Shown: in pieces, positions 343-64,000 of the stretch
Layout of the letters: each line of letters opens with the position of its first letter
Position numbering within the stretch: the stretch's first letter is position 1
Assembly: GCA_905178155.1 (NCBI GenBank)
Contig: CAJINV010000017.1
Span: forward strand, 240,722 to 304,721
Direction of reading: 5' to 3'
Origin: Amoebophrya sp. A120
Lineage: Eukaryota > Protista > Dinoflagellata
Length of the DNA: 64,000 nucleotides
The notes under the pieces: generated by a model
The model's database searches: none
The model's input: the letters and a program-made list of their open reading frames with translations, nothing else
Told to the model about the DNA's origin: nothing
Program-made: the position numbers and the translations under genes

Positions 343-970
343 TTGCCCTTCTTTGTATTTAATCCCAAGCTCAAACTCAAGACCGAGGAGTTCAAGAAGT
401 ATGGACCCAAGCTCAAACTTCCGAACACCTCGGTCAGGCCACTGGGGTACTGGATGTCCGCGTCCGCCGCACAGGCGGACATCGGTGATTGTCCGCAGCT
501 GGAGCAGCTGTTCCGCACCATTTGCCGGGCCGATGGCGTTCCCAACTGTTACGCTCCCAGCTGCTGCGTGAATTTGTGCAGCAAGAATAGCAAAACTGAA
601 AGGGGGAAGCCTGTGCCTTTTGCGTGACAGATTCGGCACAGAGAGACTCTCATCCTGTTTGTCCCTTCGGGCATTTGTCATGCGAAGCAATTTGGTCGCG
701 TCGATTCTGATTGGAATTCTGCATGACAAATCGCGTAACGGTTGAGAACGTAACATTTGAGAACGCCATATGCTGCGCTTGGGGGTGAACGAGGAGACGG
801 GCCGCTTCAGGGCGGAGGAGGTTCCGCGGAACGAACACCCACTGCAGGGGCTGTTCACCGGGGGGACCTCCTTTGCCGAGTTTAGCGGCGCCGTGAATGC
901 GAACGTGGACGAGGCCGCGGACGCCCCCGTGGAAGGCGCAGCGGAGGACCTCGACGTCGCGGATTTGTAA
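343..970 (+). CDS. Small unknown protein upstream of RepHel; 5' end uncertain, one introner intron
   Basis: ORFs 343..627 and 770..970 join in frame (…FRTICRA-RLGVNEETGRF…) when element 532-770 plus 5 nt (244 nt) is removed. Ends EDLDVADL*. Confidence 0.55.
532..770. mobile_element. Introner-like TIR element, family E (degenerate)
   Basis: Left GATGGCGTTCCCAACTGTTACGCTCCCAGC vs right reverse complement TATGGCGTTCTCAAATGTTACGTTCTCAACC. Flanks GGGCC/TGCTG diverged. Related to 40660-40911. Frame restored. Confidence 0.75.
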
Positions 971-1802
971 GGCTGGCAAAACGAAAACCACAGGGAAGGA
1001 AATAAATAAAACGAAGAAAATAATATAAAGGGGCCGGGATAGGTTGGGCGAACCATCTTCCCGGCGCAGGTGTAGATAAAACATATGCCCCACGGGGCCA
1101 CCCAAGTGAAGGAGCCACCGCGCCCCGAGGTATAGAAGGGCCGGCGCGGCGCTACGTTCACTAATGAGCGCGGGCCGCCCGGCGTGTGCAGAACATCTCG
1201 CAGAGAGATAAAAAAAGGCCGAGGCCGGATCCCGAGAAAACCAGGCACCGACCTCCTCTAGCGGGAACCGCGCCGGGCGCGGAGTCCCTCTAATGGAGGC
1301 GGCGGCGATTTTGTTTTCGGCGCGCCCGCGAGCACGCGGAGCCGCGCGCCCATATCGGTACCGAATAAAAAAGCTGACCTTTCCAAGCCATAGCCAGCCC
1401 GACCAAGGGGGGGCCAAAACCGCGGGCGCGGGCGCTGCAGCCCGAACGCCCCCCGCCTTCGTGTTCGCTCCTCGCCGGACCTGCCTCGGTCGTTTTTTTA
1501 TTTTCCAAAGGCGCGCCGCGCCTTGGCCCGTGGCGCCAAGCACAACCCCCGGGGAAGGGGGAGGCGCCCATCGAGAGAGCAACGAGCGAACAGCGAGCGA
1601 CCCACGCACCGAGAGCCGCCCGAGCGACTTTCTTCAACGACCCAACTGGCTCCCTTACGCCACTTCCCAAAGACCGCAGAACCACCTGCAGGGCCCGAAA
1701 GATAAACAAACAAAACAAAGGGCAGAACCCCCGGGAAAAGATTTCACACCCAAGCAAGAAAAGAAAGCCCAAGGCACTGAAAACCCGCACGGGGGCGCGC
1801 AG

Positions 1803-4800
1803 ATGGGTGACCCGGGCGAGGCCGCCCCAGTTCCCGCATGGTTTCGGGACCTCGCGCGCCGGCCGGGGGGCTGCTCCCGGTGTGGCCTCCGTCCGCGCTG
1901 GCAGCATACTCCGTTCTGCAGCGTGTGCCAGAACGCGCTTACGCAATGCGTAGCGTGCAAGCGCTGGCGGCCCCGGGGCTACTTTCACGGCCCACAAAGC
2001 GTCCGCCTGGCGGACACATGCCGCCCGTGCGTCGTGGCCGATGGCCTATACGATGGCCCGGCGCGGATTTGGCCTCTGCCTCTGTGGGACCCGCCCCTAT
2101 CCGTCGAGGTCTGCGAAGAATGTCCAAAATGCGAAACAAAAATATACCCGGAGGAGGTGCCCAGAGGCCGGGGGCGCCGCTGCCCTTTCTGCAGTGGCGC
2201 CTGCGGGCTTCCAATCGAGACCCTCCGGAACCTCTACAGCAGCGACATGGAGGCACTGCTCCGGTACGCCACGCCGGAGACGGTGTTCCAGTGCAACGAG
2301 GGGGCAGCCATGGTCAACACCCTCTTCCTCGAAGGCTCTGGCCGCCACATCGGCCAAGTTGGCAACTCTGGCACGTCCAACCAAATCCTGCAGGGCAGCT
2401 ACCTCTACGGCCCCCAATTTCTGGGGACCTCCCGCGGCTTCCGCCTCGTCTTCGACGACGCCAAGGAGCGGCTCCGCGGCGAAGACCAGGACGACAACAG
2501 CCCCGGCAATAACCCCGCCACCCGGAGCAGGTATCTTCGCGAAGTTCTTGCGATTCTCCTCGAGCGAAGCCCAATCTACCGCCAAATGGGGGAAGCGGTG
2601 GCCGCGTTCTTGGAAATTTACGACCACGCCGGTCTGGACAATTTCCCCACCGTCCGCGTCCGGTGCGTGGAACAGAGGGGCGCCCGGGGCATCACCGGCA
2701 TCATCCTTCCCGAAGTCTCCCCGGAAGCCTTCGAAGACGAGGACGCCCGCCACTTGATTCCCCACTATGGGGACCTCGCGCTGCCGGTGGCGCAACCGCT
2801 CCGGGGCTCGGGCCGGCCCGGTGACGCCCGGCGCGTATACCAGACGAGCGGGCGCATCGAGCAGAACTACATCAACCTCCTCCCCCTTCTCTTTCCCGTT
2901 TTGTTCCCCGGCAGGCTTGACATCCCGGAGGCTTGCTCCCTTCGCTGCTTCGCGGCGCAACTGCTTGCCCGGGTCCCCTACCCGCCTAGCTACGTCAAAC
3001 TTCTGCAGCACTTTGTCATCCACACCTGGATGAACAAAGAAACCGCCGAAGTCCTCGCGCACGAGCGCCGCTACTTCGCCCGGTGGAATAAGCGGCCGCG
3101 CTTCCTGCCCGCATCCATCGCGGGGTCGGCCGCCTCCATTGACCTGATGCGCCGGAAAGGCTTCGCACTCGTGCGGGAGTACGGCCCCCCGGACCTGTTC
3201 CTCACTATCACAATGAACACCGACTGGCCGGAGTTTCGGCGGCGCGGGCTCGACGCCTACGACTTCGACCTGGGAAACGGCCCGCATTTTTCAAGCCCGA
3301 GTCAAGAAATTCCTTGAAGAGGTCAAAGGCGGCAAAATCTGGGGCCGGGTCCGGTGCTACATCCGGTCCGTGGAGTTTCAGTGGCGCGGCCTCCCCCACG
3401 TCCATATCCTTATATGGCTGGAGGATCCAATCCTAGACCTCGCCGAGTGCGCCCGGCTTGGGAGCAAAAGCTGGGAAGAATACCCGGAGGCCTTCCAGGA
3501 TGTCGCGGCCAAGGTTTTCTTCCATGTGTGCTCCGCCGACCATTGCAAAAAAAAGAGCGCAACAATGTGCGCCAAGGGCTTCCCCAAGATCCCCTGCCGG
3601 ACCTACATTGAAGACGGCTACATCCATCTGCAGACAGAGGAAGGGCAAGAGTGGCACGTCGACCACGACATCCGCGCCTTCGCTCGGCTGCAATGCCACA
3701 CCAACATCGTCTTCCTCTGCGGGGCCATCAAAGTGAGCTACGTCGTCAAGTACGACATCAAGAGCCGCGACGCCGCAACCAACGTCACATACTCCTGGGG
3801 GCTGCAGAGGGAGCGCGAAGTCCGGCAGGACTGCCGGGCCCTTTCGAGCTCAGAGGCCTCCTACCGCCTGTTTGGGTTCCCAATATACGAGACCTGGGGC
3901 GCCGACCACGATCTGCTGCCGATGCACCTTCCGGCCCTGGAAAAGGACACGAGGCCGGAGCGAGGCGGGCAGGCAGGCGGCCCCGCCCCCGATTCTGGCG
4001 AGGACGGCGAAGAGGCAGAAAGCGACGCGGGGGGCGAGGATGTCGACAGGGCGGACGGAGCAGGCGGCGAGGCGGCCGGCCGGCCAGCTCCGGTAGCGCC
4101 CTTCCCCCTCCTCCTCAATGCCTATCTCGACCGCCCGCGCGGCGTAGAAAAATACCACACGAACTTCCTCGAGTTTGCGCAAGAGTACTACTGCGACGAG
4201 AGGCTTCGGGCGGACCTGGCCCGGTCTCAGATTGCCGCCCGGGCACGAGGGCAGCCGGATAGCCAAACATACCGCGGCGCCCGCCAGATCATAGAACGGG
4301 AGGGCCTTGAAGGAGCGGACGAAACGGAATGGGGCACCCTCCGCCCGCGGGGGCGCCGCGCCGTCCTTGTGTTCACTGGCGACAGTTTCGCCACTTGGCT
4401 GCTAACGCGCGCAGTACTGTGGCGCGACGGGTTCGAGGAAGCCCTCCGAGAAGGCAGCGCGACAGTGATGCAATACATGGAGGAAACCAACCAGGACGCG
4501 GAGCTTTTTGAGAAATTCTTGCAGGACGTGCAGGCCTACACGCGCGCAGACCTCCTCAAAGACCTGGCCACCTATTGGCAGTGCTTCCCCGGGTCCGACA
4601 CCCGCGCGGGCGCGATCCGCTACGCAGCGCTGGAAACCGGCCGCCCGCTCCCCGAAATCTTCAAACGCCTCGAGGGCCTTGGCGTGCCCGCTCTGGACCT
4701 CCGCCCCCTGCAGCAGACGATCGACCCTGTCGGGGCCCGCGCCAGGCCCGCCGGCCCGGATCTCGGCGACCCCATAGCCGCCGGCGCCTACTTTGTGCAG

Positions 4801-6306
4801 CAGGAGCGCGCTTTCTGGCTCCAGGGCCGGCAGCGCATGCGGGCCGACCTTGCCGAGCGCCGGGCCCGTTTCACTGCGTCACAGGCCTCTGCGTTCGAGC
4901 GCATTACGGCGGTGGCCGACGACGATGACCCCGCCCGCGGCCTCGCGAGGTTCGTCATCAATGCGATGGGCGGAACGGGCAAGGGCTACTTGATCGAGGC
5001 CCTGCTCCTCTACTACCGGCTGCGGGGGGAGGTTTGCGTGGTCCTCGGGTCCAGCGGCCAGGCCGCCAGCCTGCTACCGGGCGGAACAACAATCCACCAG
5101 GGCGTCGGCCTGCGGGTGTCGGGCGACCTCGCGGAGGCCGCCGAGTATGTCCGCGAACTCGCGCTGCTTAAGGCCGCCCGCTTGGTTGTCACGGACGAGG
5201 CCTTTATGGCTCATCGGAACTGGCTGGCCCAAAGGGACGCGCGGCTGAACGAGCTGCAGGCAAAGCCGGCTCTCCTCGATGCGGGGGACCTTGAACAGAT
5301 CGGGCCGGTTGACGATGGCACGGCCGAAACCATTTCGGCACAGATGGAGGGCCTCCACCCGATGGAGTACTACGACGAGCTCGGCGCGGCAGTCGAGTGG
5401 CTTGCCCTCGAAGTTCCGGCCGGCCAGAAAAACCCCCGCTTTCGGACGCAGGCGTGGTCGGACTTTTGCACCGACATCCGTAGCGGGGCCCGCCCGGAGA
5501 TTTTTCTTAATCCGGAGAACTCGGACACCGAGGAGCCGGGCGCGCCACTTCCCCCCCAGCCGCCGTTCCAGGTGGTAACGACCCCGGACTGGTCCTACCA
5601 GGAAATCGCGGAGCAACTTGCCCGCGGGGAGGCCGATCTCATTTGCGGCACCCACTACGAAAAGGACCGCGCCACCAGGGTCCTGCTCGAAGCCTTCCGC
5701 CGGCTCTTCCCCGATAAGCCGCTGCGCTCCTACGAGCCCCGTTGCCATTGCAAAACGGACGTCCAGCGGAGCGCCTTCGGCACTGCCGACATTCTGGCGC
5801 AAATCAATACCCTGACCGTCGCCGTTGGCATGCGGGTCGCGCTGACGCGCAACCTCAACATTAACGGCACCCGCATCGCCAAAGAGTCCCGCGGCCGCGT
5901 GCTACACCTCGGCGCCAAGTTCGTGACGGTCGAGTTTGAAAACATCAACGGCGCCAAGAAAGTTGTGTGCGTCCCCCTAATGTATGCCATCCAATCCACC
6001 CCCGTTGACGGGGACTGGGTCATCCAAAGCATCCCCTTGCGGCTCGCCGCCGTCTCGACGGTGAACAGCTTTCAGGGCGTTACCGTCGCCCACCCCCGGC
6101 GCCTGATCGTTTCCGGGTATAACCTGCTCCAGGAGCACGGCCACGTCTACGTGGTCTTTTCCCGTGTGCAGGACGGGAGCCAGCTTTGTGTGTACTGCGG
6201 CACCGCCCAGCGAGCCCTGCCGGTGGTGCGCAAGTTTACTTCCCGCGGGCCGGAAGTGCCGGCCGGGGACGATTTGCCCGAAGACATCAATGTGAACGAC
6301 CTCTAG
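1803..6306 (+). mobile_element. Helitron-type RepHel (HUH Rep + PIF1-like SF1B helicase), ~1500 aa, +1 frameshift near 3262-3275; element ends not defined
   Basis: Rep motifs YGPPDLFLTITMNTDWPEF, VEFQWRGLPHVHILIW (HUH) and YVVKYDIK. Helicase motifs GGTGKGY, VTDEAFM, GDLEQIGPV, TVNSFQGVT, HGHVYVVFSRV. N-terminal CxxC pairs. Visibly more GC-rich than flanks. ATG 1803 is the likely start (frame open from 1293). Confidence 0.92.
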
Positions 6307-7861: not shown

Positions 7862-10800
7862 ATGGTCGCTGACGCCTCTTCCAACAGTCCCGCGAGCAGC
7901 CCCGTGCTCGCCGGCGTTAAACTACGGGAGGACGGAACAAGCGGAGTTGCATTTGATCATACCACGGCGGAAGAAAACCCCGTGGAGCTTTTCGGAAAGC
8001 CGCAGTTGCACATGCCGACGATTTCGGTCACCGGCACCGCCACGGCGGGACCAATCATGAAGCTCCCGACTTTTTTCCCGACTAGTGCTAGTAACGCCGC
8101 GGGAGCGGTGGACCTCAAAATAGGGCAGCAAACACACACAGCTAGGGGAGAGGTCCTCGGCTCCTTCGAGCCACACGCCCGACAGTCGAACTACACTTCG
8201 ACGTCTAGCAGGATCCGCAGCACCAGCGCGACAGCGACTAACGTGATGAATACCTGTGCAAGTAAACCAAACGGAGGATTCGTGCTGCGCAGCAGCCGTC
8301 TGGCGGCCGCAACCACCGCGTCCAGCCGAAACAAGGCAAAGAAGATGCAGATGAGTGTCGCACTGGAACAACAGCAAAAAGCTTCTAACTCATCAGAGGA
8401 ACATCGAGACGAAGAGGATGAGCTGCTGTTTCAACACCAACAACAAGAACCTCCCCAGCTTACTACCGGGCAGCATCACCAGCGGCCACCCGTGAGTTCT
8501 TTGAGTGGACAGCATCAGCAGCACTACAACGGTCTTTTGAATGCCAGGACGGACTCCAACGCTACCTCTGGCGCAAGTTCGGTACTGACGTCGGTGTCTT
8601 CGGCCGCTCCAAGACAACAGCACTCCTCGTCTGGACATCCGCAACCCGCACAGGTGGCTGGTGGTCCACCTCGTGGGTCATCGTCCTCACACAATTACAA
8701 TGGCTATAACAAGCGTTCCGCAATGGGCCATGCGCCGAATCTCTTTCCGTCGTCGTCTTCCAGTGTAGCATCCTCGTCGACTTCCGGTGCTGGAAGTAAA
8801 AATCCATACAACCACTTCTTGCACCATAACTCCGCTTCGGGGTTGGGCGCAGCCGGGAGGCTTGCCGGTAATAATCCCATGCAGCTGGGAATGACCACGA
8901 AAGTGGTAAAGCAGACGAGGAACGCAAGCGTTTTGAAAGCGGACAAACGGGCATCAGAGATCATTCAACGGCTGTTGAAGCGAAGTATTGGTTTGTGCGT
9001 CTTGATAACTTCTGTCGCAAGACCTCCCTGGAAGTTGCACATACAGCGCACCATGCATTCACAGCTGTAGTGGGGGTCATGGTCCTTTTTTTTTTGAGAG
9101 GACAGGAATTTGAAAAATCAGAAACCATACATAGAGTATTCTAGGTGGACCGCATAATGAGAAAGTAAGTATAAGTGCCTGTGCCTGCCCTGCCTTTTAC
9201 CATTATTTGATTTAGTACGGTTTCTGAAAAACAGATACCGCCGCATCAACCGACGACCCCGGCGAGGACCGAGAGCAATTCTACCAGGGGAGCCACACCG
9301 CCGCCGCGCAACGACAGTTCTCGTCTTCCTCCTCCTCCAGCACCGGGACGCCGAGGAACGTGAACCCGACAGACCAGCGGTTGTCGCCCGTCGAGCGCTT
9401 GCACTCGATGCACAGTGACATGGTCTCCCTCATTCACGCGATCGAAACGCTGCAGCAGGAGAACACGCGCCTCCGCTGGAAACAGCTGTCCCAGGTGGAC
9501 GTACTCTTCCGCAGTTGGTGCGATTCCGACAACCGCGGGCTTTTGTCGCAGTGTCTGAGTGTGTGGAAAAAGCTGTTGGAATACAAAAAACACAGGTGCT
9601 TTTGTGCGTCCCCACTGTTGCTTCTGTCCAAAGCATGAGGATGAGCTCCCTCGTGCTCGACCGGGTGGGCAGTAAATCTGGATCTTGCATATTCAGGGCG
9701 AGCTTTTTTCCAGGTGAAAAAAGCTCCAATGTTTCCGCTCCGTCGAGATCGAATCAAGAGTAAGTTGAGACCGAGTGGACACGGACGGAGTTGAGACCGA
9801 GACACGGACGGAGTTGAGACCGAAAAAGCGCAAATTGCACTTTTGCGCTTTTTTTCAGCTGGAAAAAAGCTCACTTTCGTTTTTTTTCGGCTGAAAAAAA
9901 GCACATTTGGGCTGCGCTCCTCTTTGCAGCTGAAAAAAAGCACTTTCGCGGTTTTTTCCAGCTGAAAAACTGCACCTTGTAACTTTTCAGGTGAAAAAAG
10001 GTACAAGGGCGCAACTTTTCAACTGAAAAAAAGCGCAAGGGCGCAATTTATCAGCTGAAAAAAAGCGCAAGGGCGCAATTTTTCAGCTGAAAAAAAGCGC
10101 CACGTGAGTTCTCACCTCTTCGTTTTTTCAGTGACAAAAAAGTGAAAATCTCAACTCGATCTCAACTCGGTCTCAACTCTGTCTCAGCTCGGTCTCGACT
10201 CGATCTCAACTCGATTTCAACTCGATCGCAATTTGGTCTCAACTCGGTCTCAACTCGATCCCAACTCGATGCCAGCTCGATCTCAACTAGATCCCAACTC
10301 GGTTCCGGCTTGCTCTCCGCTCGATCTTGGTTCAGTCTCGATGTGTTGCTCATCATCTTCGCATGTATCGAGTCTCTTCGAGGCTGGAAATTAAGCCATC
10401 AATTCGCGCTCGAACAAACCGTCTTGGCGGTTTTTTTCAGCTGAAAAAGTGCGCCTTTTCCCTTTGCGCGTTTTTCAGCTGCAAAAAGCACAACTGGAGT
10501 GCTCGTTCTAGCAGGACCAGGAGCAACTCTGAGCATTTTACACGAACGCCCGCGGCACATTTAGCCACAACGTCGGCACGGTTTGAACTCGATCTCAACT
10601 GGGTGTCTGGGCAATTTCCCAAAAGAGTCTTTGTCGATGTGGTTCAGTGCCAAGCAGTGTCTGAGCGTGTGGAAAAAGCTGTTGGAATACAAAAAACACA
10701 GGTGTAGTACCTCTTTTGCAAACTCTTTATCATCGTCGTCATCTAGTTCGTCGTCGACCTCCTTCGCGTCATCCCAAGGTATGCACTTGTTTCGTCAAGT

Positions 10801-20442: not shown

Positions 20443-21016
20443 AAGTGTAAGTGATACTGATAACCCCGCATTTCATATATCAACAACCGTAGAAATGCCA
20501 CAATTTCATCTTACCGCTATGGTGCGTAGTTACTCGGCACAAAAAAAACAATGTGTTGATGTTGTTCGTGTCCGAGTCCAGCGACCAAGATGAAGATCAA
20601 GATACAACGCCACGACAGGACTTTGACTACTTTCTCCTGAGCCGAAGTTTTTTGATGATTTTTTTTCTGTGGAATGCAAACAACAAAAATACAAGAAGGA
20701 CCACCACATTGAGACGTTGTGCAGTAGTAGTTGCCGTAATCTGGGCCTGTTCTGAAAGGAAAACGCAAACGATCCATATTGAGTCCAGTTTTGAAACTGC
20801 CTCTTTCATCTAGCGTAGTCAAAAAATCCAAAAAGGCTATCAAGGATGGGATCACGACCAAGATTAGACATACAACCAACATTGCGAGTAGTCCGACTGT
20901 TGATGTCGATCGGATCCTTCTGTCATTCAGTTTCAGGCTAAGTAGTCTTATTTTTTGGAATCTTTATCTTTCATCGGCGCTCCTGATTGTACATCAGTTT
21001 CAAGTTGTTGTAGAAT

Positions 21017-22511: not shown

Positions 22512-24078
22512 GTCCGGCTTGATGCTGGGCTGCTTTAACAGCGAACATCGTAACGCAGCGTGAGAGCACTATAATTTGTCGCGACGTTTGCGGGTGACGA
22601 ACTCTCTCGCCTTGCTCCCTACATGTTTTGAATAAGTATTTATATTTTGAACCGAGCTGCCACTTCTAGTATCACGATACTAAAAACTAAGTTCATTGTG
22701 CTTCTTCTTTTGTTCGGTATGTGTTTGCAGTAAATTGTCTTGTTTTGTAAAGTACGACCATTTTCTATTTTGATGCGATGCCTCGCGTTTTGACGATTCA
22801 CCGGACGTTCCTGCACGGGCAAATAAACAGCTAGCAGATTGATACTTTCCGACGGTTTTTTGTTGGATCCGACTCAGTGCTTGTTGCACTTCTTCGAATT
22901 TTTGGAACTGACTTCTACGCTATTGTACAAAACTTCTAAGTACGCTGGTCCAATGTATGATATTCTGTTCTCTCCAATGTATGATATTCTGTGTGGTCTC
23001 CTCTGCACCCTCCGCTCACCCTGATGCCCTTTTGATGCGCGCTACGTGCCTTTTGATCAGGAAAACAAGCAGCACTGTGCAAAAGAAAAAGGTATAGTGG
23101 TCGCCTCTACCGGTGCCGGTTTTTGTTTTTCTTATGGTTCATGCTGAGGAACCATGTCCGTCGCGCAACGAGAATAAAGCTCTGTTTTCATGGACTCGAA
23201 AAATTTCCTGCTGCTAAAGTTAAAGAAGTATGCGAGTATAATCTGTTGAGTTATCTGATACACACACCAACAGAAACGTGGGCAATTAGTTAGCTGTTTC
23301 GTTTTGTCACTTGAAGGCTATGCGTTTTCATCGAGTATCGGTGTTTTTGTTTATCCCTATACGTCTGTCACTGTCTTCTGCGGCAACTCGTTGCAAGAGA
23401 AGCTAGCATCGTTGCAGTCGTGTGTACACCTACTCGCAGTCGAAAACTCGAAGAGAAAAAATCTGCTCGGTGAAGTGGAACGCGACGAACAAGGTCGGCG
23501 CTAGCACTTTGTGCTTCATCACCTGTAGCATTTTTTGATTTGTACTTGATATGATTCGAAAAATGCAAAATGTCGGCAAAACAAGAACTGCTCATGAGGC
23601 TACAAAAACATGAGGCAACCAATCCATCGGTTAACTTTTTTACCCCATGCTTAAGTACCTTTTCGGTCTCAATGATCGCCACCGAGGGTAATGCACCACG
23701 AGGACCTTTCGTTTTTGAGTATCATGATTGACGATAGGAGATGCCACTGCCTTTCCCTACGCATAAAAAGGCTACAGCTCCCCACACACAGTCCCTTTAA
23801 CTTTTGCAATAGATCAATATACTTTTCCGTCCAATACAAGAATAAAAATTTCGGGAGGAGGCCGTGGACCACGGCGGGCCTGTGTGTACTATCTATTCGC
23901 AGTTTATATCCATTTCGGTTGGTGTGTATCTATTCGCAGTAAGTTTGGCGTTTACCTTTACCTGGCCCGCACGTATCTAGAACAGCTTTTTTTTTGGTTT
24001 TCCTTGTTCTGTGCTTGGCCTCTTTTGGTACTCTTTAGACGACCCCTCTTGAAGATATTTACCTTTTTCTGTTGAAAG

Positions 24079-52900: not shown

Positions 52901-55900
52901 GACCACGTACTGTCGTGTCCGAGACCCGGCGTCCGGGGTTTCAAGGACTTACTTCGTGAAAGAAATCCGTCATGACGAGTTTCTCTGCATGTTCGCGGAG
53001 GCATTTAAGGTGGGAGATTTGGAAGTATCGATCGAGTCGATCACGGGGTTAAGATCCGGGTCGGTTACTTTATCGGTCCTTCCGCCTTTGATCGCCGCGA
53101 CGAGCTTTGCGGTGACCGCGGGGAACAAGGGAACGAAGTCGAGCACCAATTTCGCGACCGGAAGAGTGGAGAGCCTGGCGATGCGGCACTTCCAACCATT
53201 GAAGAGAAGCCCGCCGGTGGACCGAGGCGCGAGATCGTACGCGAAAGCGGATCCGGTTGCGGTAACGATCGTGACGCCGGAATTTTCCTCTCGTTCAAAC
53301 GCGGACAGTGGGAAAATCCTGGTCCCGTCGGAGTACAAGCCGAACAACGCGGTTTTCCAACAGGTGGAAACCTTGCTCGAGACGGAAAAGTACCCGCGGA
53401 GGTGCTTTCTCGACGGGATCGAGGTCCCGATGTCGGAAGACGGAATTGCGACGTGCGAAATCCCGATCTTCGGCGACTCGTGGGGCTCGGATATCCCGCT
53501 GAAGAGGACGGCGAAGTACGAGTTTGAGAAGAGGAAGAAGGGGCGGAAAGAAGCGGAAAATATCGACTACAGTTACTTAACACTATCCCCCCACGCGGAC
53601 GTGAACGCGAAGAACGCGGACGCGGTCATCCCTCTGCCGAAAGCGGTGGCGCCGTATCGCATTTGAAAACGTCCCCACCCCAGAGCTGTAATGCAAATCT
53701 GCATGCTAAAAATGTTTCTCATGCGGAGCCCCATGAGAAGCATTGCGTAGGCGTGTTTTGGAATTTGTCATGCTCTAATCAGCATGATATACTAGATCTG
53801 TGATGCTACTTAAGTACCTCAAACAGCACTACACTACGAGTCCAAATTTGTCATGCAAGATAGCCAAATTTTGTGGACTTGTCCAGCCGATTTCCCATCT
53901 TGACTATGGGGTGGGGACGTTTTTACATAGGATACGCCCTTAGGATTGTCTATCCGGGATGAGTATCCTGTGCAAAAGTACCGTATTCGTATTAATTGCG
54001 TTTATGCATTACAAATCCAGCTCCTAAAGCAAATCCGCATTACAAATTAAATTTGTAATGCTAATACAATTTGTAATGCAATTTATACTAGTACGATACT
54101 TTTGCAGTTCATAATGAGGACAATCTCGGGAACAATGCGCGCTTCATCTCCCAGTGCGATCCGGATAGTGAACTCTCTCCCTTCTACCAGCAGGAATTCA
54201 ATTACTCCGCGACGACGCACGCTCCCTACGTCCCGCCGTGCACCAGCAACCGGATCCGGTCGGGGATGAACCAATTTATCAAGCTCCGCGCCGAGGGGCT
54301 CACGGGGAGTAGGCATTTGCAGGGAACGTTGTACTGCAAATCCGATGCGAACCCGATAACGGAGGGCTTTTCCTCGACGGGTCTGGGGTTGGCCACGACG
54401 TTTTCTCCGATCAGGGAGGCGAAAATCCGCGGCGCGAAGGATTTAGATTGTGGATTGCTCCAAACGCGGAAAATCAGAGGCGTGCAGGTCTTGACGGTGA
54501 CCTCCGGCAGCACAGTTGGCGGCTTCACCAGCAACGGAGCGGTGGCGGTCCGGGTCGCGCCGATGAGCTCGTTTGCTACATTCCCGCAGAAAAACTTCTT
54601 CGGCACAACCTTACGCTATCGGTTCCCTCCGCGGCAGCCTCAGTTTCAACTTCATGGAAGGGAAATCGGTGAAATTGTCAACCCTTACTGCAAGTTCACG
54701 ATCCCGCGAACTTTGAAGGAGCAGGCCGCGTTCGGGCAGAGCAACTACTACGAGACGGAGAGCCGATTTATCGTGGTCGAGGGGACGACGCTGACGACCT
54801 ACCCAAGGGGGTCCGCCCACGGGGTGAGGTGCCAACTACCGGAACTGTATGAGTACGACAGTCAGCTGCGGTCGAAAAACGTGTACCACTTGAACGTTTT
54901 TGACGAACGTGCGAACAAAATCTTTCAGCAGGACGAGGGTAGTGGTCTGCGTCTAGAAGATTTGAACAACCGAAATTTCCAGTTCAAATTGAACCCAATT
55001 TCCCAAGAAGCGTCAGGCTTAGTCTTCCCGGAACGCGCGAGGTCGGAGTTGTTTTTCGAGTTCACGAACAGCGAGTTGCCGAAGAATTTCGACTTGGACA
55101 GCTTACTACCCGCGGTCGGCGCCTCCGCCTGCATCTTTTGCAACGGGGAGCGGACGCAGGCGAAAATCCAGTTTTTGCACAACAAGCCGGTCATCGCCTG
55201 CCCGACACCGAGTCTGAATTTGGAGGCGTGGGTCCAGTGCCCGGTGAAGGTGTCTTTGGACGGGGTGAATATTCTCTTCGAGTCCAGGCCGCAGGCGGCG
55301 AGGTTGAAAGCCGCGAAGTTGACGGAGACGTTCTTCGACATGGCAAGCGACTCGGACGAACTGTCCTGGCGCATGGAATTTCCGGCATATAACACCTGGA
55401 TTGTGGGGAGGACACTGGCAGAATCCGGGGTCAATATCGTGAACGAGACCAACACCGAGGTGCAGTGCACCTTCCGGCCCGCGGAGTTGAAAACGGCTTC
55501 TACTGGTGGCGGAATCTACTCCCGGGAGGAAATTCTCACCCCGAAAAGCACGAAGCTCACGCCGGGAGCTTTCCCTATGCGAACCAGAGGGTACGTGGCG
55601 AGCAATTTCCGGACGGAGGACAACCGGCAGATCCTCGTGGTGAAGTGCCCGGTGCCGGCGATCAGCGGGTTCTTTACGACCTGGCAAAGCAGTTCGCTGT
55701 ACTGCAGCTTGGATTTGCAGTACTCGGGCTTCGTCAGGCTCCCCGCACCCGCGCCGCTCCTCCTCCGCTCCGTCCGCGAGCCGAAGTTCTTCGCGCTTTC
55801 CCCGAAGCAGGCGTTTGCGAACGTGGTGAACCAAAAGGTGAACATATCCTGAGTAAAAACGTACCCACACCAGAGTCAGGATGGGGATTTTGCAACACAA

Positions 55901-58900
55901 ACCTAGGAGCTTTCTGAGTCACGCATGACAAGTTGCGCTCCGCAGTCTAGTGCAGGTTAGCAAGTGCAGCCGCATCACAGATTCATCTCCTCATCCTGTT
56001 CACAGCATCACAAATTCCAAAACACGATTGGGAATGGCTCTCATGCGGATGCGCATTACAAGTCTTCCTGTCTTTGCAAATCTGCATTACAACTCTGGCG
56101 TGGGTACGTTTTTACTCAGGATAGAACATCCTCGGCGACAACTTCCCCGACGTGCCGGGCGGGCGGATTTTCATCGCTTTGGGCGTGAAAGCGAGCAACA
56201 TCACCCACCGGGCGCCCTCCACTTCCGCGGTTGCAAGTCAGAAAAAAGCGGCGGACGATGTGGAGGATCCGAACACGGTCTATCACAACGCTAATTGGCG
56301 AAACAACACCGCGCCCTGCGAGTGGCGAGCCAGCATGATCTTGGCGTGTAATCTCCCGGCAGTAGTGGACTCCAACGGCGGCGCCTACCCGGTGTATCTT
56401 TCCTTCTCCGGGGGCGGTAGGGAGTTGGCCGAGGGGAACGGATTGAAGTACACGGGGCTGACGCTGGATCTAGTCCCCGAGCCGTTGTTGAAGTCGTTAT
56501 TCTATGCGGGGTCGAACTTTGTCAACATGCGGCTCCATTCCGGCGAGGATTACATGAACAGCAATCGGTTTTTCTACCGCACGGTGCACGGCTTGTCGTG
56601 TTACCTCGGTAGTGAGAAACTCCTCACCCGGGTGATCACGAACCCGCCCGGGATCCAGTGCTTATTACCCGGGATGCCGGACGTCCAGGCGAACTCGGTG
56701 CAGCGGCTGAAGGCGAAGGAGGCACTGCGCGCGTTGAACATCGCGAGTCGGGATCAACAGGTGTACGAGATCCAAAAGCCGTACTTGCTGTCTTTACGTG
56801 CCTACCCAGGGATCCGGTCCACCGGGCAGCCGGACTTGATGGACTACCCGTCGGAAAACTACGAAGACACGAAGAACTTCAAGGCGTTCGTGGAGAGATC
56901 GTTGCAGGATTGGAACAACCGGATCCCCATCATTTCCGCCGACCCGAGCTTCGACCCCACGGTGAAACTATCGGACACGTTTCAACTCCGCATGCCGGAT
57001 TTGCGGTCGGGGCTGATCGTCCCCTACGTGTCCGAAGCACGGATCCACGCGTTGATTCCCCTATCAAATGCAAAGGTGTCTGGGTCTGGAAGGTTGGAGC
57101 TTGTGATGCTAACTTTGGACTCGGAAAGATTCTGTATTGCATGTTCAGCAAGAGGGGTCTAGTTTGTGCTACGCGGGGAGGGCATTTGTCATGCGGAATA
57201 GGCATCAGGAAGCCCTCTAAAAATCTGTGATGCTAGGTCATGCATTACACACATCCTGGGTCATGTGAAATATGCATGACAAACCCGGCAACATTCCAGA
57301 CCCAGACACATTTGCATTTGATATCCCCAGGCGTTTTACAACATCCGCGTCGAGTCCGGCTACACGCAGACGCCCTTCGCGAACGCTATGGGAGGTGTCA
57401 GGATCGAAATCGACAAAATCGAAAAATTTGTGATGCGTAAAATGTAGGGCACGGAGGGCCTGTATTGGGGAGCCGGAAAATGGGGCAGATTGTAAGCCTG
57501 TTTAGGAGTATGCAATGTGCTGCCAGAGTAGCATGACAGGAGCAGTCTTCTTCGCCCAAACAGCATGACAGACTGGATTTGGGTTCTCCCGAAATTTCTC
57601 ATGCGTCACTTGGAAACTGTCTCCAACTGGCATCGATTTTGTGCATCACAAATTTTTCGACTTTGTCAATTTCGATGCTCACGCTTCCATAAACGCGGAC
57701 GGCACGACCACGACGCTCTGGTCGGTCGACAGTCAGAAAACGTTGTTGCTCCAAGGGATCAGCCGACCTTCTTATGTCAAAGTCGTCGGCTCCGGTCTGG
57801 GCCCGCGGATGCGGTGCGAGTTTCAGGACCAGGACACGGGGAGGCGGGTGATCTCCGCCAGTGTGATCGCCACAGAGGTGCCGACTGCTCTGTACTGCGA
57901 AGTGCCGCAGATTGTCGTCGACGCCATCAGCGCGAACGACGCGGCGTCGAGCAGCACGTATCCCACGAAAAAAGTGTTACAGTTACACATTTGTAGCTAA
58001 TTCAGCAACACAAATTTCCCGTGTATGAGAGAGAAAACTTGTAATGCAGAAATCCTACGGGAAAACACCTATGAAACGAGGCTCCTATGCATATCCGGCA
58101 TGACAAAGGTTGCCTGTCTTGCTTGTTTCGCGAACACAATGTGTAACTGTAACACTTTTTTCTTGCGATAGCACGGGCGGGTCGTCCAGTAGCTCGGGGC
58201 AACGGGAATTGTTCTCGAAACTCTACGCGGTGAGATTAGTTTCGGAGGAGGGGGCGAACGGGCTGGTGATCTACGACAGGCAGGTGTTCCGCATGTCCCT
58301 GCAGGAGCAGCCGTCGTTGACCAGCTTTTACCCAAAGTCCGGCGCGGTTTTGGACCCCGCGATTTTGATCACGATCTACGGGTCGAACTTTCCGTACGGG
58401 GATATCGCGCTGGACCAGAAATTCACGCTCGCCGCGCGAGGTGCGCTGTGCAAAGTCGGGGACAATCCGAGAAGAGCGGAGAGCGGGAAAGGGCCGTATT
58501 TGACGGAGGCGAAAGTGGGTTTGTTCACCGCGGAGATTCTGTCGCCGGGGATCCTCCAGTGCAACATCACGGGGACGTTTACTGGTGGTCACAGTTTCGG
58601 CGTTTCCTTTGATGGGATGAATTTCATCCAATTTGACGAAGAGTTCCATTTCGTCCAACACGACCACAAAGTCTCGCCGGAGCGGGGAATCGCGGCGAAA
58701 CTCGAGTTTCTCGGGTTACAGATCCCGTTCAAGGGCTTGTACGACGGTGGCGACCCGCAGCCGTTCTGCGACGTGTATGATTCGTTGAATCTGTACTCCT
58801 ATTATGCAATACAAATTTCCCGTACATGTACAAGGTGCATCACAAATTTCACCAATTTGGAGCGTAACACTTGTCATGCTAAACTAGGATCGGAGCCAAG

Positions 58901-61900
58901 TTTTGTCATGCAGCGGCCGCATTTGTACGTGTACGGGAAATTTACAGTGGATACCTATTCTACGCCCGCAGAGTTCGGCCGGCCGCAGGCGGACAAGATT
59001 CTCGAGGGCGCGGAGGACTACACGAAGGCAACGTGTCAATTGGATAGGGAGAACGTCACCGCGGTGCAACTCCACTTGGCGACAGTCGGGCCGCTGACGG
59101 AAAAGGTGTACTTCTCAACACTGTTGGTGCCGCAAGTCACTTTCGTTAAGCCTGCGACAATTTCGGAGAAGGGTGGCGCGGCGCTTTTTGTGTCCGGGAA
59201 GTTTTCCCCGACAGAGATCAATTTATGGAGAGAGAAAAAGACCCGTTTGAGGCCCGTCCAACTTGTGGTCATGGAAAACATGCATTAGTAGAGCCCGTGT
59301 TTGTAGTCATGCAACAGTTCTTGGATGGGGATCATCATGCTGGGTCCTCTTTTGTTGTCAATACAACCGCGAAATTTACTACTACTGTTGGTTCTCACAC
59401 TCGCCGCAGTTGAACGGAGATCCGTATTACAGCTCGGTCTATTTCCAGAACGACACCACCGCGGTGTGCGAGGCGCCGCCCGGCCCGAGCATGCGGGTGA
59501 GGCTGAGGACAGAGACGGGGATATCCTGTGTAAAAACGTCCCCACACCATAGTTGTCATGCAACTCTGCATGCTTAAAATGTTTCTCATGCGGAGCCCCA
59601 TGAGAAGCATTTTCCAATGCGGTTTGGAAATCTATAATGCGCCAATCAGCATGAGATACTAGATCTGTAATGCTGCTTAGCTAGCTCAAACAGCACTACA
59701 CTACGCGTCCAAATTTGTCATGCGAAACAGCCAAAGCTTATGGATTTGTCTAGCGGATTTCCCATCGTGACTCTGGTGTGGGGACACTTTTGCTCAGGAT
59801 AGGGGACTCTGTCCAACACGGTGGACATGTACATCGCGGCCAGTTACACGCCTATTCCTATCCTGAGCAAAAACGTCCCCGCCTCAGACTCAAGTTGGTA
59901 AATCTGCAACACAAATCTCTAAGGTCTAGGAGTTGCGCATGACAAGTTTCCATCTGCAGTGTGGCGCTGGGTAGCAAGGGAAGCTGCATGAGAAACCCAC
60001 TTATTTCTCATCCTGTTCACAGCATTACAAATGTCAAAACACGATTGGAAATAATCCCTGTCATGGAGATGGGCATTACAAATCTTTATGTCATGGCGGA
60101 TTTGCATCACAACTATGGGGTGGGGACGTTTTTACACAGGATAATTCCGATGTACAGTTTGAAACTGAACTACGTCCCGGACCCCCAGGTCAACTACACT
60201 TTCCCGTACCTGGGGCACACGGGCGGCGACGAGCCCATCGCTTTAGTCGGGATGGACTTCTTACCGGAGGAGACTTACCGATTGCAGGTCGGGCAAAGGA
60301 CGGTCCCCTGCGACTACCGGTCGGACGTCTTGCTCACCTGCGTCACGCCCGCGGCGGAGGAATTCAAGCAGTCGAATGAGCGGACCATTTCCGAAAGGAT
60401 CAAGTTCACAAACGACACACCATTCGAGGCGAACAACTACACCATTCAGTACACGCCCTACAACTTAGACCGGATCGGGAACAAGGCACCTTTGGGCGTT
60501 TCCTTCAACGGCGGGTTTGCGTATTACAGTTTGATGAACAACTTTTTGGAGTATTTCGACCGCGTCATCGAGCAGGATGGCGCGACGGTGATGGAATATT
60601 CCGTCCCCGATATCGGAGAAACGTTCATCGGTTTACCCGGCGTTGGTAGGCGAGGGCCGAACGTGGCGAATCTGTCAAACAATTCCGCGTTGATCAATGA
60701 GGAGATTATTTGCGATTTTGGCAGGGATCGCGCTTTCCCCGTGTTCGTCAACGGGAGCTACACGATTTGCCCAACCAGGTACTACGCCGCGGCCGCGTCG
60801 AGGTATTTCCGCGTCTTGGATTTGGCGCACGAGGGATTTCAGCTGACGCCAACTTTTCTGCTCCAAACCGCGCCCGGTTTCGACGTGGTGGATGTCCACC
60901 CTCTGGCAATTCCCACCTACAACACCTCCTTCCGGGTCGCTTTTCGGCAGGGCGCGGGCTCCGCGACGGCTTGCCGATTAGGAGACTTCATCGCGGTTTT
61001 GCGGTCCGGGAATTCGATGGTGCAAACCGGGGATATCTACGTCCGGAAGGACACTTTTGATCCTACCGCGTCCGTCGACGTGTTGATTTGCGAGATTGAA
61101 ACCATGAACGAAGGGACTTTTGGTCTGCAGATCGAATGGGAGGGAACCGGGCAGTACATTGACACGGGCGTCATCATCGAGGTGTACAACCGCGCGATTG
61201 TGAACGAAATCATCCCGGATTACGCGTATCAGGGACTGAACCAAACCGATCTGCTGAGGCCGAAAATCGCAGCGGAAATCGTGAACGCGATACGGGAATC
61301 TTCTCTCGCCGCTCGGGAGGAATTGTTAGCGGATCACTATGTGTTGCAGCTTTACGGGTCCTTCCCCTACAAGTACAACTTCTTCGAGGTGTCCCAGTGC
61401 AGCATTGGCCGGCACTACGTGAAAGGGCTGATTTTGTCCCCGACCAAAGCTCTTTGCTACGTGCCGAGCAGCCTTCTGTTCGAATTGGGCCCGATGGAGG
61501 TGACCTTTTTCGCGAACGGGGTGCACGCGAACGAGAGGAATTTGCACATCAACGAGTTCACGGGGATCGGGCAGTATTTGGATGTTTTAACCGTCGTCCC
61601 GCCCCTGACCGTGACGAAATTGCCTGAGTACAAAACCGCGTGGCCGGGGTCGAGCTTGATTTTTGAGTTGCTCGGGGCCTTTGACAGCAATTTTATCGAC
61701 TTGGTTCTACTCCCAGAAAGGTACTGGAACAGCACGATGGAGTATCACGAGAAAAAAGTGTTACAGTTACACATTTGTTGGAGTTTCTGCATCACAAATT
61801 TTCTCTGTGTGGCAGAGAAAACTTGTAATGCGAAGATCATAAGGGAAAACAGGAAGGAAAAGAGGCTCGGAAGCATTTCCTGCATGAGAAAGGTTGTCTC

Positions 61901-64000
61901 TGTTGCCAGTCTTGCATGACAATGTGTAACTGTAACACTTTTTTCTTGCGATATGGAGGGCTTGATGACGCCGAATTTGGAAAAGGACGTGATTTATCCT
62001 GTGCAAAAGTATCGTATTCGTATAAATGCAAGTCTTGCATCACAAATTTCTTTCTCAAGGTAAATCAGCATTACAAATTTCATTTCTCATGCTGAGAAAA
62101 TTTGTAATGCATTTATACGAGTACGATACTTTTGCAGTTCATATGATTGACATCATTTTCGCGCCCTGCTCGCTCTCCGACGCGGCAACAGGGAGTTTGA
62201 TTGTCGTGCCCCACGACTTGACGACTTTAAGAGAGGCGTTTGATGGCACAAAGGTGAAAAAGCTGACTTGTTTAATTCCCCAGGGGCCAGTCAATTCAGG
62301 CGTCTACTTGCCTCGATTCGCGATTTCGAGACAGATCCTCGCGACAGTCGTTCCTGAGGAGTTTTACGAGACTTTCTTCACGATCAAGATGCCGTCAGAC
62401 GTGAAAAACGTCGTGCCGAGCTACGCGCTGATTGGCGAGGGCTACGACAATCAGTACAAGATTTTGGAGGAGGACTACGAGGGCGAGGAAGTATCCAGTG
62501 CAAAAGTATCGCACTCGTACTAAAAATTGCAGTCTGGCATGACAGATCCGCTTTGCTACTTGAACCTGCATGACAAATTTCATTTTTCTTTCTGGGAAAA
62601 TTTGTCATGCGATTTATACTAAATACGATACTTTTGCAATGCATAGGAAGATTACGAAAACGACTTCGGCTACGCGGACCAGCTCGTCACTGCCTCCGCC
62701 GTGCACGTCGATAACAACGCAAGAACTTTCTCGTCCTTATACGACGAATTATCCGCTAAGGAATCCCAAATCTCCAGCGGTCTCTGCGCGCTCATTCCCG
62801 AGTCAGAAGCCATGTCCACCTCGATCAACAACGAGCAATTCCGGTGGGGAATGGTGTATGATAACGCGGTGTGCACGGGCCCCCGGCCGATCGACTTAAC
62901 CAAAAACGTCTTCCGTTATTCCCCGTCGAAAGACCCATACCGCGATTGGGCGACGTCGAATCTGCGCGTCATCACGATCCGACTGTTCGGGGTGGACACG
63001 ATGACGCCGAAGAGGATCTTGGGTTACAACGCCGACTACACGGTGGAAATGAAGCAGAAAGACACGGATGTAATTTGGTACGACCAGGCGGGCGTCAGCA
63101 AATTGGTTTTCAACGGCAGTAATTTCACGGATGTTGCGACGTTGATCCCAAGTGGGGTGTTCGCCTGTCGCTTTGAAAACTCACTTTTGACAAACGCGAC
63201 CGCTTTGTCCGTTTCCCAAGCGGCTTGCGACATGCCGAAGACCGATTTCTTCCGCGCAAAGGGAAAAATCAAGGTGGATTTAGGGCTGAAGATCGACGAC
63301 GACGCGTTCTACCCAGCGAATGAAGAATCTTTCACGCTGGAAGTGTTGCAGTCGCCGAAAATAACCGCGACAAATCGGTTCATCGTCTACAACACCACGG
63401 CAGACCCGGTACAGCTTATCACAGACGATCAACCCACGATGGACCTGTATGGAAATGCGCACGTGAAGCAAAATCGGTTTTTAACATTGAACCCCTTGAA
63501 ATTGGGCTACAGCTTCATCCTGTACGGGCGGAACTACCCCGCGGCCGAAGATGTTTCTACTGTGCTATGTATCTTCAGGATCGCCGCTGCCGATCCCGTC
63601 AAGGAGTACATCCCGAGCGCGCAGCAACTGTACAAGACGACGGCGGTTTGCTATGCGCAGAAGGTTTGCTACTGTTTGACGCCGAGATTGCACGACAATG
63701 TGATGAAGACGACGACGAAATTGGAGCTGTTTGTGTCGCTCCGGTTTTTGTTTAATTACTACGAACTCACCAATTATCACGACACCAGCGAGTTCCCCGT
63801 GGAAGTGGAGGTATGGCAGACGAATGAGAAAAAAACCACATCTATCAAGTGCAAAAATGTCTGGGTCTGGAAGAATGCATGTTTGTCATGGTTGTCTAGC
63901 ATAACTCTTAAATCTGTCATGCGCGTTACCCAAGAGCTCCATTCTTCTGTGATGCAGAAACGCAGTCTGTCATGCAGAATAGGCAACACCTAGAATCTCA
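40932..64000 (+). CDS. Giant extracellular protein (>6000 aa, 3'-truncated by window): LamG/ConA-like domain, PAN/apple-like Cys motif, many IPT/TIG repeats; 20 introner introns
   Basis: Signal-like MMLFSLAASLVHA at 41661 (frame open from 40932). LamG-like FDGSG…LDDFRF…LHYTFDEGSGNIAVD. IPT-like PKLTNIVPKAGSALGGTRVYLFG, SLTSFYPKSG…ITIYGSNF, PQVNYTFPYLGHTGGDEPIALVGMDF. 19 successive element+5 nt removals keep one frame (~18.0 kb coding from 41661). Confidence 0.87.
41962..42098. mobile_element. Introner, family A
   Basis: TATCCTGTGCAGAGTATCGTACTCGTA … TACGAGTACGATACTTTTGCAATTCATA. Perfect TSD GGAGA. 142 nt. Confidence 0.94.
42255..42515. mobile_element. Introner, family B
   Basis: TATGAAATGCAAAAATGTC…CTGGGTCTGGAAGA and its inverse. 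Perfect TSD GACCC. 266 nt. Confidence 0.94.
46404..46594. mobile_element. Introner, family A (degenerate)
   Basis: TATTGAGGGCAAAAGTAATATCGCACT … AGTGCGAT…ACTTTCTCATCGCATA. Flanks ATTCT/AAGAC. 196 nt restores frame. Confidence 0.75.
47713..47865. mobile_element. Introner, family A
   Basis: TATGATTTGCAAAAGTATCGTACT … AGTACGATACTTCTGCACTGGATA. TSD AATTT/AACTT. 158 nt gives EEFRCTVP. Confidence 0.92.
49987..50336. mobile_element. Introner, family B
   Basis: TATGGATTGCAAAAATGTCTGGGTCTGGAAGA and its inverse. Perfect TSD GGAGG. 355 nt. Internal (CCAA)n tract. Confidence 0.94.
51102..51209. mobile_element. Introner (shortest, 108 bp)
   Basis: TATGCACAGAAAAAAACCCATCCACATCCA … TGGATGTGGATGGTTTTTTTTCTGTGGATA. 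Perfect TSD GGACT. 113 nt. Confidence 0.94.
53655..53934. mobile_element. Introner, family C
   Basis: TATCGCATTTGAAAACGTCCCCACCCCA … TGGGGTGGGGACGTTTTTACATAGGATA. TSD CGCCG/CGCCC. 285 nt. Confidence 0.92.
53964..54113. mobile_element. Introner, family A
   Basis: TATCCTGTGCAAAAGTACCGTA … TACGATACTTTTGCAGTTCATA. Perfect TSD ATGAG. 155 nt. Confidence 0.94.
55845..56123. mobile_element. Introner, family C
   Basis: 30/31-nt TIR TATCCTGAGTAAAAACGTACCCACACCAGAG. Perfect TSD GAACA. 284 nt gives VNILGDNFP. Confidence 0.95.
57062..57323. mobile_element. Introner, family B
   Basis: TATCAAATGCAAAGGTGTCTGGGTCTGGAA and its inverse. Perfect TSD TCCCC. 267 nt. Confidence 0.94.
57387..57691. mobile_element. 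Introner with ~50-nt TIR
   Basis: TATGGGAG…ATCGAAATCGACAAAATCGAAAAATTTGTGATGC and its inverse. Perfect TSD AACGC. 310 nt. Confidence 0.93.
57959..58170. mobile_element. Introner, family D
   Basis: TATCCCACGAAAAAAGTGTTACAGTTACACATT and its inverse. Perfect TSD GCACG. 217 nt. Confidence 0.94.
58803..58953. mobile_element. Introner, in frame and stop-free
   Basis: TATGCAATACAAATTTCCCGTACATGTACAA … TTGTACGTGTACGGGAAATTTACAGTGGATA. Perfect TSD CCTAT. 156 nt. Confidence 0.92.
59224..59363. mobile_element. Introner (degenerate)
   Basis: TAT…AAAAAGACCC…CCCGTCCAA vs TTGGATGGG…GGGTCCTCTTTT…ATA. Flanks CAATT/CAACC. 145 nt. Confidence 0.82.
59522..59801. mobile_element. Introner, family C
   Basis: TATCCTGTGTAAAAACGTCCCCACACCA and its inverse. 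Perfect TSD GGGGA. 285 nt. Interior closely resembles 53655-53934. Confidence 0.94.
59859..60143. mobile_element. Introner, family C (opposite orientation to 59522)
   Basis: TATCCTGAGCAAAAACGTCCCC … GGGGACGTTTTTACACAGGATA. Perfect TSD ATTCC. 290 nt. Interior resembles 55845-56123. Confidence 0.94.
61743..61953. mobile_element. Introner, family D
   Basis: TATCACGAGAAAAAAGTGTTACAGTTACACATT and its inverse. Perfect TSD TGGAG. 216 nt. Confidence 0.94.
61995..62143. mobile_element. Introner, family A
   Basis: TATCCTGTGCAAAAGTATCGTATTCGTATAAATGCA and its inverse. Perfect TSD TGATT. 154 nt. Confidence 0.94.
62492..62645. mobile_element. Introner, family A
   Basis: TATCCAGTGCAAAAGTATCG … CGATACTTTTGCAATGCATA. 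Perfect TSD GGAAG. 159 nt. Confidence 0.94.
63843..64000. mobile_element. Introner, family B, left part only
   Basis: Left TIR TATCAAGTGCAAAAATGTCTGGGTCTGGAAGAA after ACATC. Right end lies outside the window. Confidence 0.85.

Follow-up and report, generated by a model that had tools for sequence, protein, structure and literature searches.

Repeated copies of one short sequence, TTGTVATGC (V being A, C or G), lie within the inverted-repeat elements of a 64,000-nucleotide stretch of the dinoflagellate Amoebophrya sp. A120 (contig CAJINV010000017.1, positions 240,722 to 304,721 of the forward strand; hereafter the window, with coordinates counted from its first letter). Based on the conservation and spacing of this motif, we predict that it probably forms a binding array on double-stranded DNA for one shared transposase, or for an element-encoded partner protein. 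That the motif is a real, shared feature of the window elements is confirmed: a preliminary description of the window had reported the 9-mer in families with different terminal inverted repeats (TIRs), and all of the positions it cited hold the sequence (675+, 721−, 18131+, 18255+, 51134+, 51166+, 54006−, 54037−, 54053+, 54071+, 62037−, 62068− and 62102+). The enrichment is strong, with 53 strict matches (29 on the + strand and 24 on the − strand) versus 1.68 ± 1.36 (maximum 5) in 100 dinucleotide shuffles of the window. Allowing C at the first position (YTGTVATGC) raises the count to 73, and all 53 strict and all 73 relaxed matches fall inside 35 TAT…ATA elements or remnants that together cover 8,036 base pairs (bp). 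Nineteen of these 35 were delimited mechanically (TAT…ATA plus a 5-bp duplication), five by similarity, and the rest through contig joints or, as with some old remnants, by eye; contig joints give independent limits for 12 of the 35. There are no strict matches in the Helitron of the window, where the motif had been judged rare by eye, and three apparently coding matches belong to the element at 57387–57691, which was unmasked at that count.

A larger sample was drawn from metagenome contigs scanned with the terminal pattern of one family (family 0), which gave at least 129 loci (L001–L129) with 660 kb of unique sequence; these derive from one assembly of a related genome, and family 0 is over-sampled by design. 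Viral contigs were also scanned, and nothing was found in them. An element finder, which itself requires TAT at the ends, returned 506 elements from the loci and the window compared with 8–10 in shuffled DNA; we kept the 474 that were shorter than 500 bp and had an A-rich end (32 were dropped), and these grouped into 12 families of 3–195 copies plus 22 singletons. The motif is present in all 12 families, with 1,010 strict matches within the 474 elements versus a mean of 9.9 in within-element shuffles. The relaxed form occurs at 11.7 per kb in elements and at 0.057 per kb in long reading frames of the related genome (11 matches in 194 kb), in line with the earlier impression that the motif is rare in exons.

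The window elements are very likely the introner elements described from Amoebophrya sp. A120, which have inverted repeats of TAT, seven variable bases and at least three As, direct repeats at their junctions, and non-canonical splice sites (PMC7789003, PMC12130899); the same inverted repeat, junction repeats and, in contigs guessed to be RNA, removal at non-canonical sites are found here. Published introner lengths near 106, 149, 208–214, 256–261, 278, 305 and 319–322 bp (PMC7789003; Gozashti et al. 2025, PMC12130899) also match those of the present families. With TIRs, a target duplication, high copy number and no coding capacity, the elements have the features of miniature inverted-repeat transposable elements, i.e., of non-autonomous TIR transposons; summed contig depth, which is not a copy number, reached ~184,000 in bins containing elements versus ~45 in unique bins. 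TAT termini are common to the intact copies, as is a target duplication of 5 bp, which is perfect in 411 elements shorter than 500 bp, is also seen directly in the window, and shows no base preference, and most ends of elements below that length have an A-tract at positions 11–14 (A at 0.88–0.94 for positions 11–13 and 0.82 for position 14). Because termini and duplication size are held in common, we treat the families as one superfamily. The preliminary description had called the families otherwise unrelated, which overstates their separateness given these shared ends; their interiors are mostly beyond alignment, with only five of 66 family pairs alignable after masking of motifs and termini (four families forming one cluster). 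Families 0, 1 and 9 are the only ones in which the terminal repeat could itself be read as a motif copy, and we rejected this as a general account.

Weighted by family, the motif is wider than the 9-mer, at approximately AWYY-TGT-V-ATGC-R with TCT, TGC and TTGC as tolerated variants, and it is pseudo-palindromic (TTG-N5-CAA); T is nearly excluded from the V position (7 of 1,372). In the six largest families, within-family identity is 0.84–0.95 in the core and 0.70–0.79 in the other interior columns, while the V position, inside the core, stands at 0.62–0.81. Private substitutions in 418 copies amounted to 0.029 in the core versus 0.062 in the interior (ratio 0.46, 95% confidence interval (CI) 0.40–0.52). 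This sharp conservation of the core, together with a spacing shared across families that cannot be aligned, supports a common predicted binding site.

The spacing follows a rule with respect both to the element ends and to neighbouring sites. The centre of the outermost site lies less than 37 bp from the end in only three cases, and the distances peak at 37–38 and 45–49 bp, with a weak third group at 57–60 bp; a Rayleigh test at 10.3 bp gave a median p of 0.007 using one end per family (n = 12), and a median p of 0.022 over eight relatedness clusters, where 68% of the draws gave values under 0.05. Single families can switch between positions, the right end of family 0 having its site at 38 bp (52 copies) or 46–47 bp (88 copies), and the left end of family 4 at 48–49 bp (10 copies) or 59–60 bp (15 copies). 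Pairs of sites in the same direction and 31–33 bp apart occur in 11 of the 12 family consensi versus 1.9 expected (0 of 5,000 simulations), convergent pairs at 13–15 bp occur in six (p = 0.004), and within 18 of the same-direction pairs there is a degenerate inverted site at +13 to +15, which scores 2.0 versus −5.6 in shuffled sequence (maximum −2.7). A held-out thirteenth family, from which the rule was not derived, has inward sites 46–47 bp from both ends in four of six copies from the loci and in its window copy. End-proximal sites are likewise kept in long copies whose interiors have been swapped and whose duplications are intact (38 and 38 bp in L068, 47 and 45 bp in L019). The minimal 108-bp element at 51102–51209, which had been portrayed as little more than TIRs and two motif copies, indeed carries two same-direction sites (51134+ and 51166+) that are 32 bp apart and centred 38 and 39 bp from its ends. 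Spacings that are constant in length and unconstrained in sequence, and that span roughly three turns of the helix, suggest an array of proteins bound to double-stranded DNA.

The common termini, the few alignable pairs and the cluster of four families might also be expected if motif and spacings were functionless remains of a single ancestor that internal duplication and recombination had spread, and the spacers within 32-bp pairs are indeed slightly more alike than shuffled sequence (0.355 versus 0.301). However, drift would not hold the core at its observed identity while the V position varies and yet excludes T, nor would it keep the length of spacers whose sequences are only ~35% alike, and much of the excess similarity is likely to be the middle inverted site. 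We therefore hold such a relic to be highly unlikely, the contrast between the core and its neighbours having already largely refuted it. An origin of the 32-bp pairs by tandem duplication was likewise rejected, as the similarity of the spacer to the stretch after the second site is only 0.35.

If the array is a docking site of the mobilising machinery, the transposase or element-encoded partner would assemble on both ends and so move elements that are themselves non-coding. Its subunits would dock at centres 37–38 or 45–49 (rarely 57–60) bp from the terminus, and on a module consisting of a forward site, an inverted site ~14 bp on, and a forward site 31–33 bp from the first, a length at which the subunits would stay in helical phase. 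Only copies that keep the array would amplify, and the interiors and the arm sequences at 16–30 bp would thereby be free to diverge between families. Once a copy is inserted the array would be dispensable, and it would be the TAT-N7-A-rich ends on which excision from RNA depends, as the old skipped copies described below suggest.

A different protein could in principle occupy the site. Much as IHF and FIS serve bacterial elements, a host DNA-bending or chromatin protein that binds a specific sequence might have been co-opted here as an accessory factor, with the transposase reading only the ends. Helical phasing is typical of bending factors, and arm positions 17–30, which differ between families, are conserved within a family much like the core (0.037 versus 0.029), which could mean family-specific end recognition combined with a shared accessory site; the arm conservation of family 0 is, however, inflated by the search pattern. 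The report of no transposase in A120 (PMC7789003) also leans this way. A host protein would nevertheless be expected to have sites of its own, whereas none of the 73 motif matches in the window lies outside elements, and 113 of the 151 remaining non-coding matches from the loci are no more than 200 bp from a further match or 150 bp from an element fragment. We consider a host factor unlikely.

The preliminary description had proposed a common site whose reader would be a transposase or else a dedicated factor for splicing. Of this proposal, the shared predicted binding site is supported, with transposition as its best fit, and a required role in splicing is not, as there is no orientation bias, copies that lack the motif are skipped in likely-RNA contigs, and insertions in the core occur at the neutral rate. 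Orientation was scored for 425 copies (322 called exonic and given a strand, 43 called non-coding, and 60 without a call), and strand calls were consistent within loci in 290 of 301 cases. The 322 exonic copies are inserted in both orientations with no family at p < 0.14, and every scored family except one with two copies shows both orientations (10 of 11). Turning to RNA, the X7–X9 contigs, which are guessed to be RNA, come from one sample and are mostly at least 99% alike, contain 13 joints in 15001–34900; twelve of these leave out an element, and GT..AG is recorded for none. Several joints remove exactly the element plus five bases, and two such joints occur together in a single contig, although in principle the joints could reflect empty-site alleles instead of RNA removal. 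Six of the 12 skipped elements lack a strict motif, five of these also lack variants, and two have no site above the shuffled background, while all of the skipped motif-less elements keep recognisable TAT-N7-A-like ends on at least one side. That copies without the motif are still cut out of likely-RNA contigs makes a docking site for transposition likelier than a splicing signal. RNA runs X4–X6 over 46001–64000 matched only element look-alikes. Among 272 exonic copies, 14 could be removed in register by GT-AG, compared with 12 in the antisense control. Private insertions of three bases (+3) hit the core 33 times versus 33.7 expected (20 versus 18.8 in exonic copies).

In a weaker form of the splicing idea, the motif would be an enhancer, acting on RNA or through stems between inverted copies, that improves non-canonical excision and is not required for it. 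Inverted copies could pair in RNA, the core is still under-substituted in older copies, the motif is slightly more often sense than antisense in exonic copies (478 versus 422), and U1 small nuclear RNA (snRNA) went undetected in published work that proposed a new recognition subunit (PMC7789003). Nine of the 12 skipped elements, however, have no strict site on the + strand, taken as coding, and in 52 exonic copies the motif is antisense only. Furthermore, exonic copies (0.49) do not have a lower substitution ratio than non-coding ones (0.39, n = 35), private insertions are neutral in the core, the arms show no significant bias of G-U over A-C pairs of the kind expected from selection for RNA pairing, and the 108-bp family, which has same-direction sites only, is inserted in both orientations (5 and 2). 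An enhancer thus seems to us decidedly improbable.

Several points weigh against a transposase array that is dispensable after insertion. No transposase or autonomous copy was found in the 660 kb and the window, a small fraction of a genome, and Farhat et al. (2021; PMC7789003), who found none in A120, argued against general transposase-mediated mobilisation. The spacing windows of 31–33, 13–15 and 17–18 bp were picked after the histograms had been seen, only two of the three peaks behind the phasing are well filled, the third being weak, the switch in family 0 is one of 8–9 bp and not of 10–11, and divergent pairs at 17–18 bp (3 of 12, p = 0.09) are not significant. With respect to splicing, the slight sense excess has p = 0.067 with sites that are not independent, the X7–X9 contigs are only guessed RNA from a single sample and yield no splicing efficiency, and the neutral expectation for the core may be an underestimate, given that conserved sequence makes indels easier to call; the rate of +3 insertions is 3.0 per kb in end-proximal sequence versus 1.8 per kb in the core. 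Finally, the ratio of core to interior substitutions stays near 0.46 in all age classes with no rise to 1, is 0.44 in 61 copies with a mismatched duplication, and, as an excess ratio, is 0.63 (CI 0.19–1.38) in degenerate-end copies (110 collected, families 0–5 analysed). The motif may thus have a modest role after insertion, with partial retention; the flat ratio would also be expected if terminal branches included unsampled rounds of transposition.

By analogy, the array would work like the subterminal repeats of CACTA or piggyBac-type elements, with the present elements being members of neither group. CACTA (En/Spm) elements likewise have a short motif repeated inside their ends in both orientations; it is bound by TNPA and is the cis-determinant of transposition through which non-autonomous copies are moved in trans (PMC2613891). 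In contrast to CACTA, the present elements have TAT termini (not CACTA), a 5-bp duplication (not 3 bp) and an unrelated motif, with ~1–4 strict sites per element spread through short interiors at fixed spacing. The ends of piggyBac-type elements are arrays of transposase sites (PMC11707139), and in piggyBac and piggyBat these are regularly repeated and include an imperfect palindrome bound by a dimer, much as the motif here is pseudo-palindromic; unlike piggyBac, there is no TTAA target preference, and the termini differ. The best candidate lineage for the mover is A120 family 38 (fam38), a likeness that follows its published annotation: it is 808 bp long, annotated as Ginger, and has TA/TA termini, a 5-bp target-site duplication and homology to Copia integrase (PMC12130899). 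A 5-bp duplication is also found in the TDD-4/5 elements; Ginger termini, however, are TGTNR and most Ginger duplications are 4 bp with a target preference (PMC2836005), whereas the present termini are TAT and do not fit that group.

Neither the internal motif nor the spacing rule is mentioned in the available text of PMC7789003 and PMC12130899, figure logos aside, and literature searches with spellings of the motif and with terms for subterminal or internal introner motifs found no mention of it. Farhat et al. described 1,954 families with direct repeats of 3–5 nt and no family-specific inverted-repeat motifs; the repeat is resolved here as a 5-bp duplication without base preference, and one internal array unites the families. 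We also considered whether the site flags elements to be silenced by the host or to receive a base modification, e.g., with 5-hydroxymethyluracil (5hmU), or positions chromatin proteins, since 5hmU lies on repeats in other dinoflagellates (bioRxiv 10.1101/2023.11.30.569493). The reported 5hmU motif, GTTGTTGTTG, is unlike the present one, however, and a silencing mark would presumably be selected against in amplifying lineages and not conserved, and we think this account extremely unlikely.

For the question of how introners move in Amoebophrya, the presence of one site and one spacing rule across families implies a single system of mobilisation; how they are spliced is a second question. The motif offers a bait for pull-down of the mobilising protein and a signature for autonomous copies, and the two problems become separate, in that splicing studies can set the interior aside and focus on the termini; subterminal binding arrays are well known in general, which limits the surprise. 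A bolder scheme, which we offer tentatively and hold to be rather less probable than not, is that the many introner families of Amoebophrya (1,954 published for A120) would for the most part form a single system, mobilised by one integrase-like transposase (TA…TA termini and an unbiased duplication of 5 bp) acting as a helically phased multimer on a forward-14-inverted-18-forward module, with an independent terminal code for U1-free splicing, such that any DNA between two correctly spaced ends could become a mobile intron that is removed from RNA.

Among candidates for autonomous elements, long pairs were rejected, being neighbouring elements or copies with unique cargo, and there was no convincing HHCC zinc finger and no Pfam match; 16 open reading frames from long copies likewise had no Pfam match. 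One such long copy, from family 0 and 972 bp in length (L028, 11016–11987), has perfect arms of 30 bp, carries unique cargo and lies inside the gene for the largest subunit of RNA polymerase II. In families 0–3 the two arms share the same non-consensus base within the terminal 30 bp about twice as often as expected (133/78, 43/23, 32/17 and 85/39), an effect absent in families 4 and 5 that suggests arm homogenisation or selection for matched arms.

The private insertions within elements are themselves unusual, with 227 of 492 being +3 and only three three-base deletions seen. In 165 cases the +3 insertion is a 3-bp duplication with one junction base complemented (35 expected), and 19 of 48 six-base insertions have the same form (0.3 expected); 148 of 158 distinct events are present in a single copy. 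Hairpin-type transposon excision leaves footprints of this kind, such as those of Ac, and the +3 insertions resemble the excision footprints of another transposon. Two inverted-repeat candidates without TAT ends (L035, 5979–6388, and L075, 7899–9757) have 3-bp duplications and no motif site (n = 2), and are possible sources of these footprints; no transposase reading frame was obvious by eye in the L075 candidate. The +3 insertions are enriched from position 10 to the first site (91 versus 54.6) and slightly depleted inside 32-bp pairs (22 versus 33), both of which may reflect detection bias, and the outer 10 bp had one insertion versus 18.6 expected, a figure confounded by element detection. 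In the window they are seen at 42255–42515, near 47817 and at 62492–62645. If they also occur in exons, the resulting in-frame gain of codons could contribute to the rapid protein evolution reported for the genus.

The first element of the window, at 532–770, has one degenerate end and sites at 675+ and 721−. It is followed by the 12 elements skipped in the likely-RNA contigs. Among those with strict or C-form sites are 17890–18043 (17929−), 18094–18308 (18131+, 18255+), the old 19452–19616 (19496−) and 24504–24828 (24591−, C form), 28485–28744 (28530+), and 33172–33534 (33210+, 33291−). Old elements with neither strict nor variant motif lie at 17316–17491 (the joint running from 17314 to 17496), 18867–19114 and 20202–20393, while 19694–19929, also old, has no strict motif and one variant. 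The two old elements with no motif-like site above the shuffled background are 31420–31767, which keeps its TAT-N7-A-rich ends, and 33671–33988.

Family 0 is represented by 39190–39454, which has the 5-bp duplication and sites 39230+, 39261+, 39312+ and 39405− (outer centres 46 and 47 bp from the ends); 42255–42515 (42332+, 42386+, 42425+), with two +3 footprint-like insertions; the lengthened 49987–50336 (50026+, 50111+, 50150+, 50199−); 57062–57323 (57101+, 57186+, 57225+, 57274−; outermost sites centred at 45 and 47 bp); and 63842–64000 (63914+, 63947+, 63967+), which is cut by the window end. The window copy of the held-out family, at 57387–57691, has no A-tract at positions 11–14 and carries sites 57428+, 57531−, 57563− and 57643−, with outer centres at 47 and 46 bp and one 32-bp pair. 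Four sites with centre spacings of 31, 18 and 18 bp (54006−, 54037−, 54053+, 54071+) occupy 53964–54113, and the last two of three sites in 58803–58953 (58837−, 58871+, 58903+) are 32 bp apart. The elements at 59522–59801 (59553+, 59665+, 59715+) and 59859–60143 (59937−, 60022−, 60073−, 60104−) belong to the same family and lie in the same gene in opposite orientations. Further elements are 40660–40911 (40727−, 40806+, 40851−), 41962–42098 (42029−, 42055+), 53655–53934 (53686+, 53765+, 53798+, 53848+), 55845–56123 (55923−, 55972−, 56005−, 56053−, 56084−), 57959–58170 (58039+, 58098−), 61743–61953 (61789−, 61823+, 61914−), 61995–62143 (62037−, 62068−, 62102+) and 62492–62645 (62537−, 62568−, 62602+). 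The element at 47713–47865 has no strict motif, and a 3-bp insertion near 47817 falls within one of its sites.

Many of these elements lie in a giant + strand reading frame at 40642–63841, which is interrupted ~20 times, amounts to ~5,900–6,000 codons once elements are removed, has a TIG-domain match, and continues to the window end. Two of its interruptions are old and motif-less: the remnant at 46404–46593, which is presumably spliced out, and 59224–59427, whose right end is uncertain. Genes made of ~75-bp coding repeats (W-D-V…M-F pattern), putatively BspA/DUF285-like, occupy 21900–34450 and are interrupted by old elements; a further apparent interruption at 29330–29640 has no listed joint and no strict motif. 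The Helitron is GC-rich, spans 1212–6306, and has Pfam matches to Helitron_like_N and PIF1 split over two overlapping frames near 3217–3317. In 9549–11971, a region free of the motif, a ~45-bp exon-like segment occurs three times (near 9550, 10655 and 11920), flanking two insertions that are possibly a different mobile element; the first of these contains tandem repeats of 11 bp as well as 32-bp repeats that run in either orientation.

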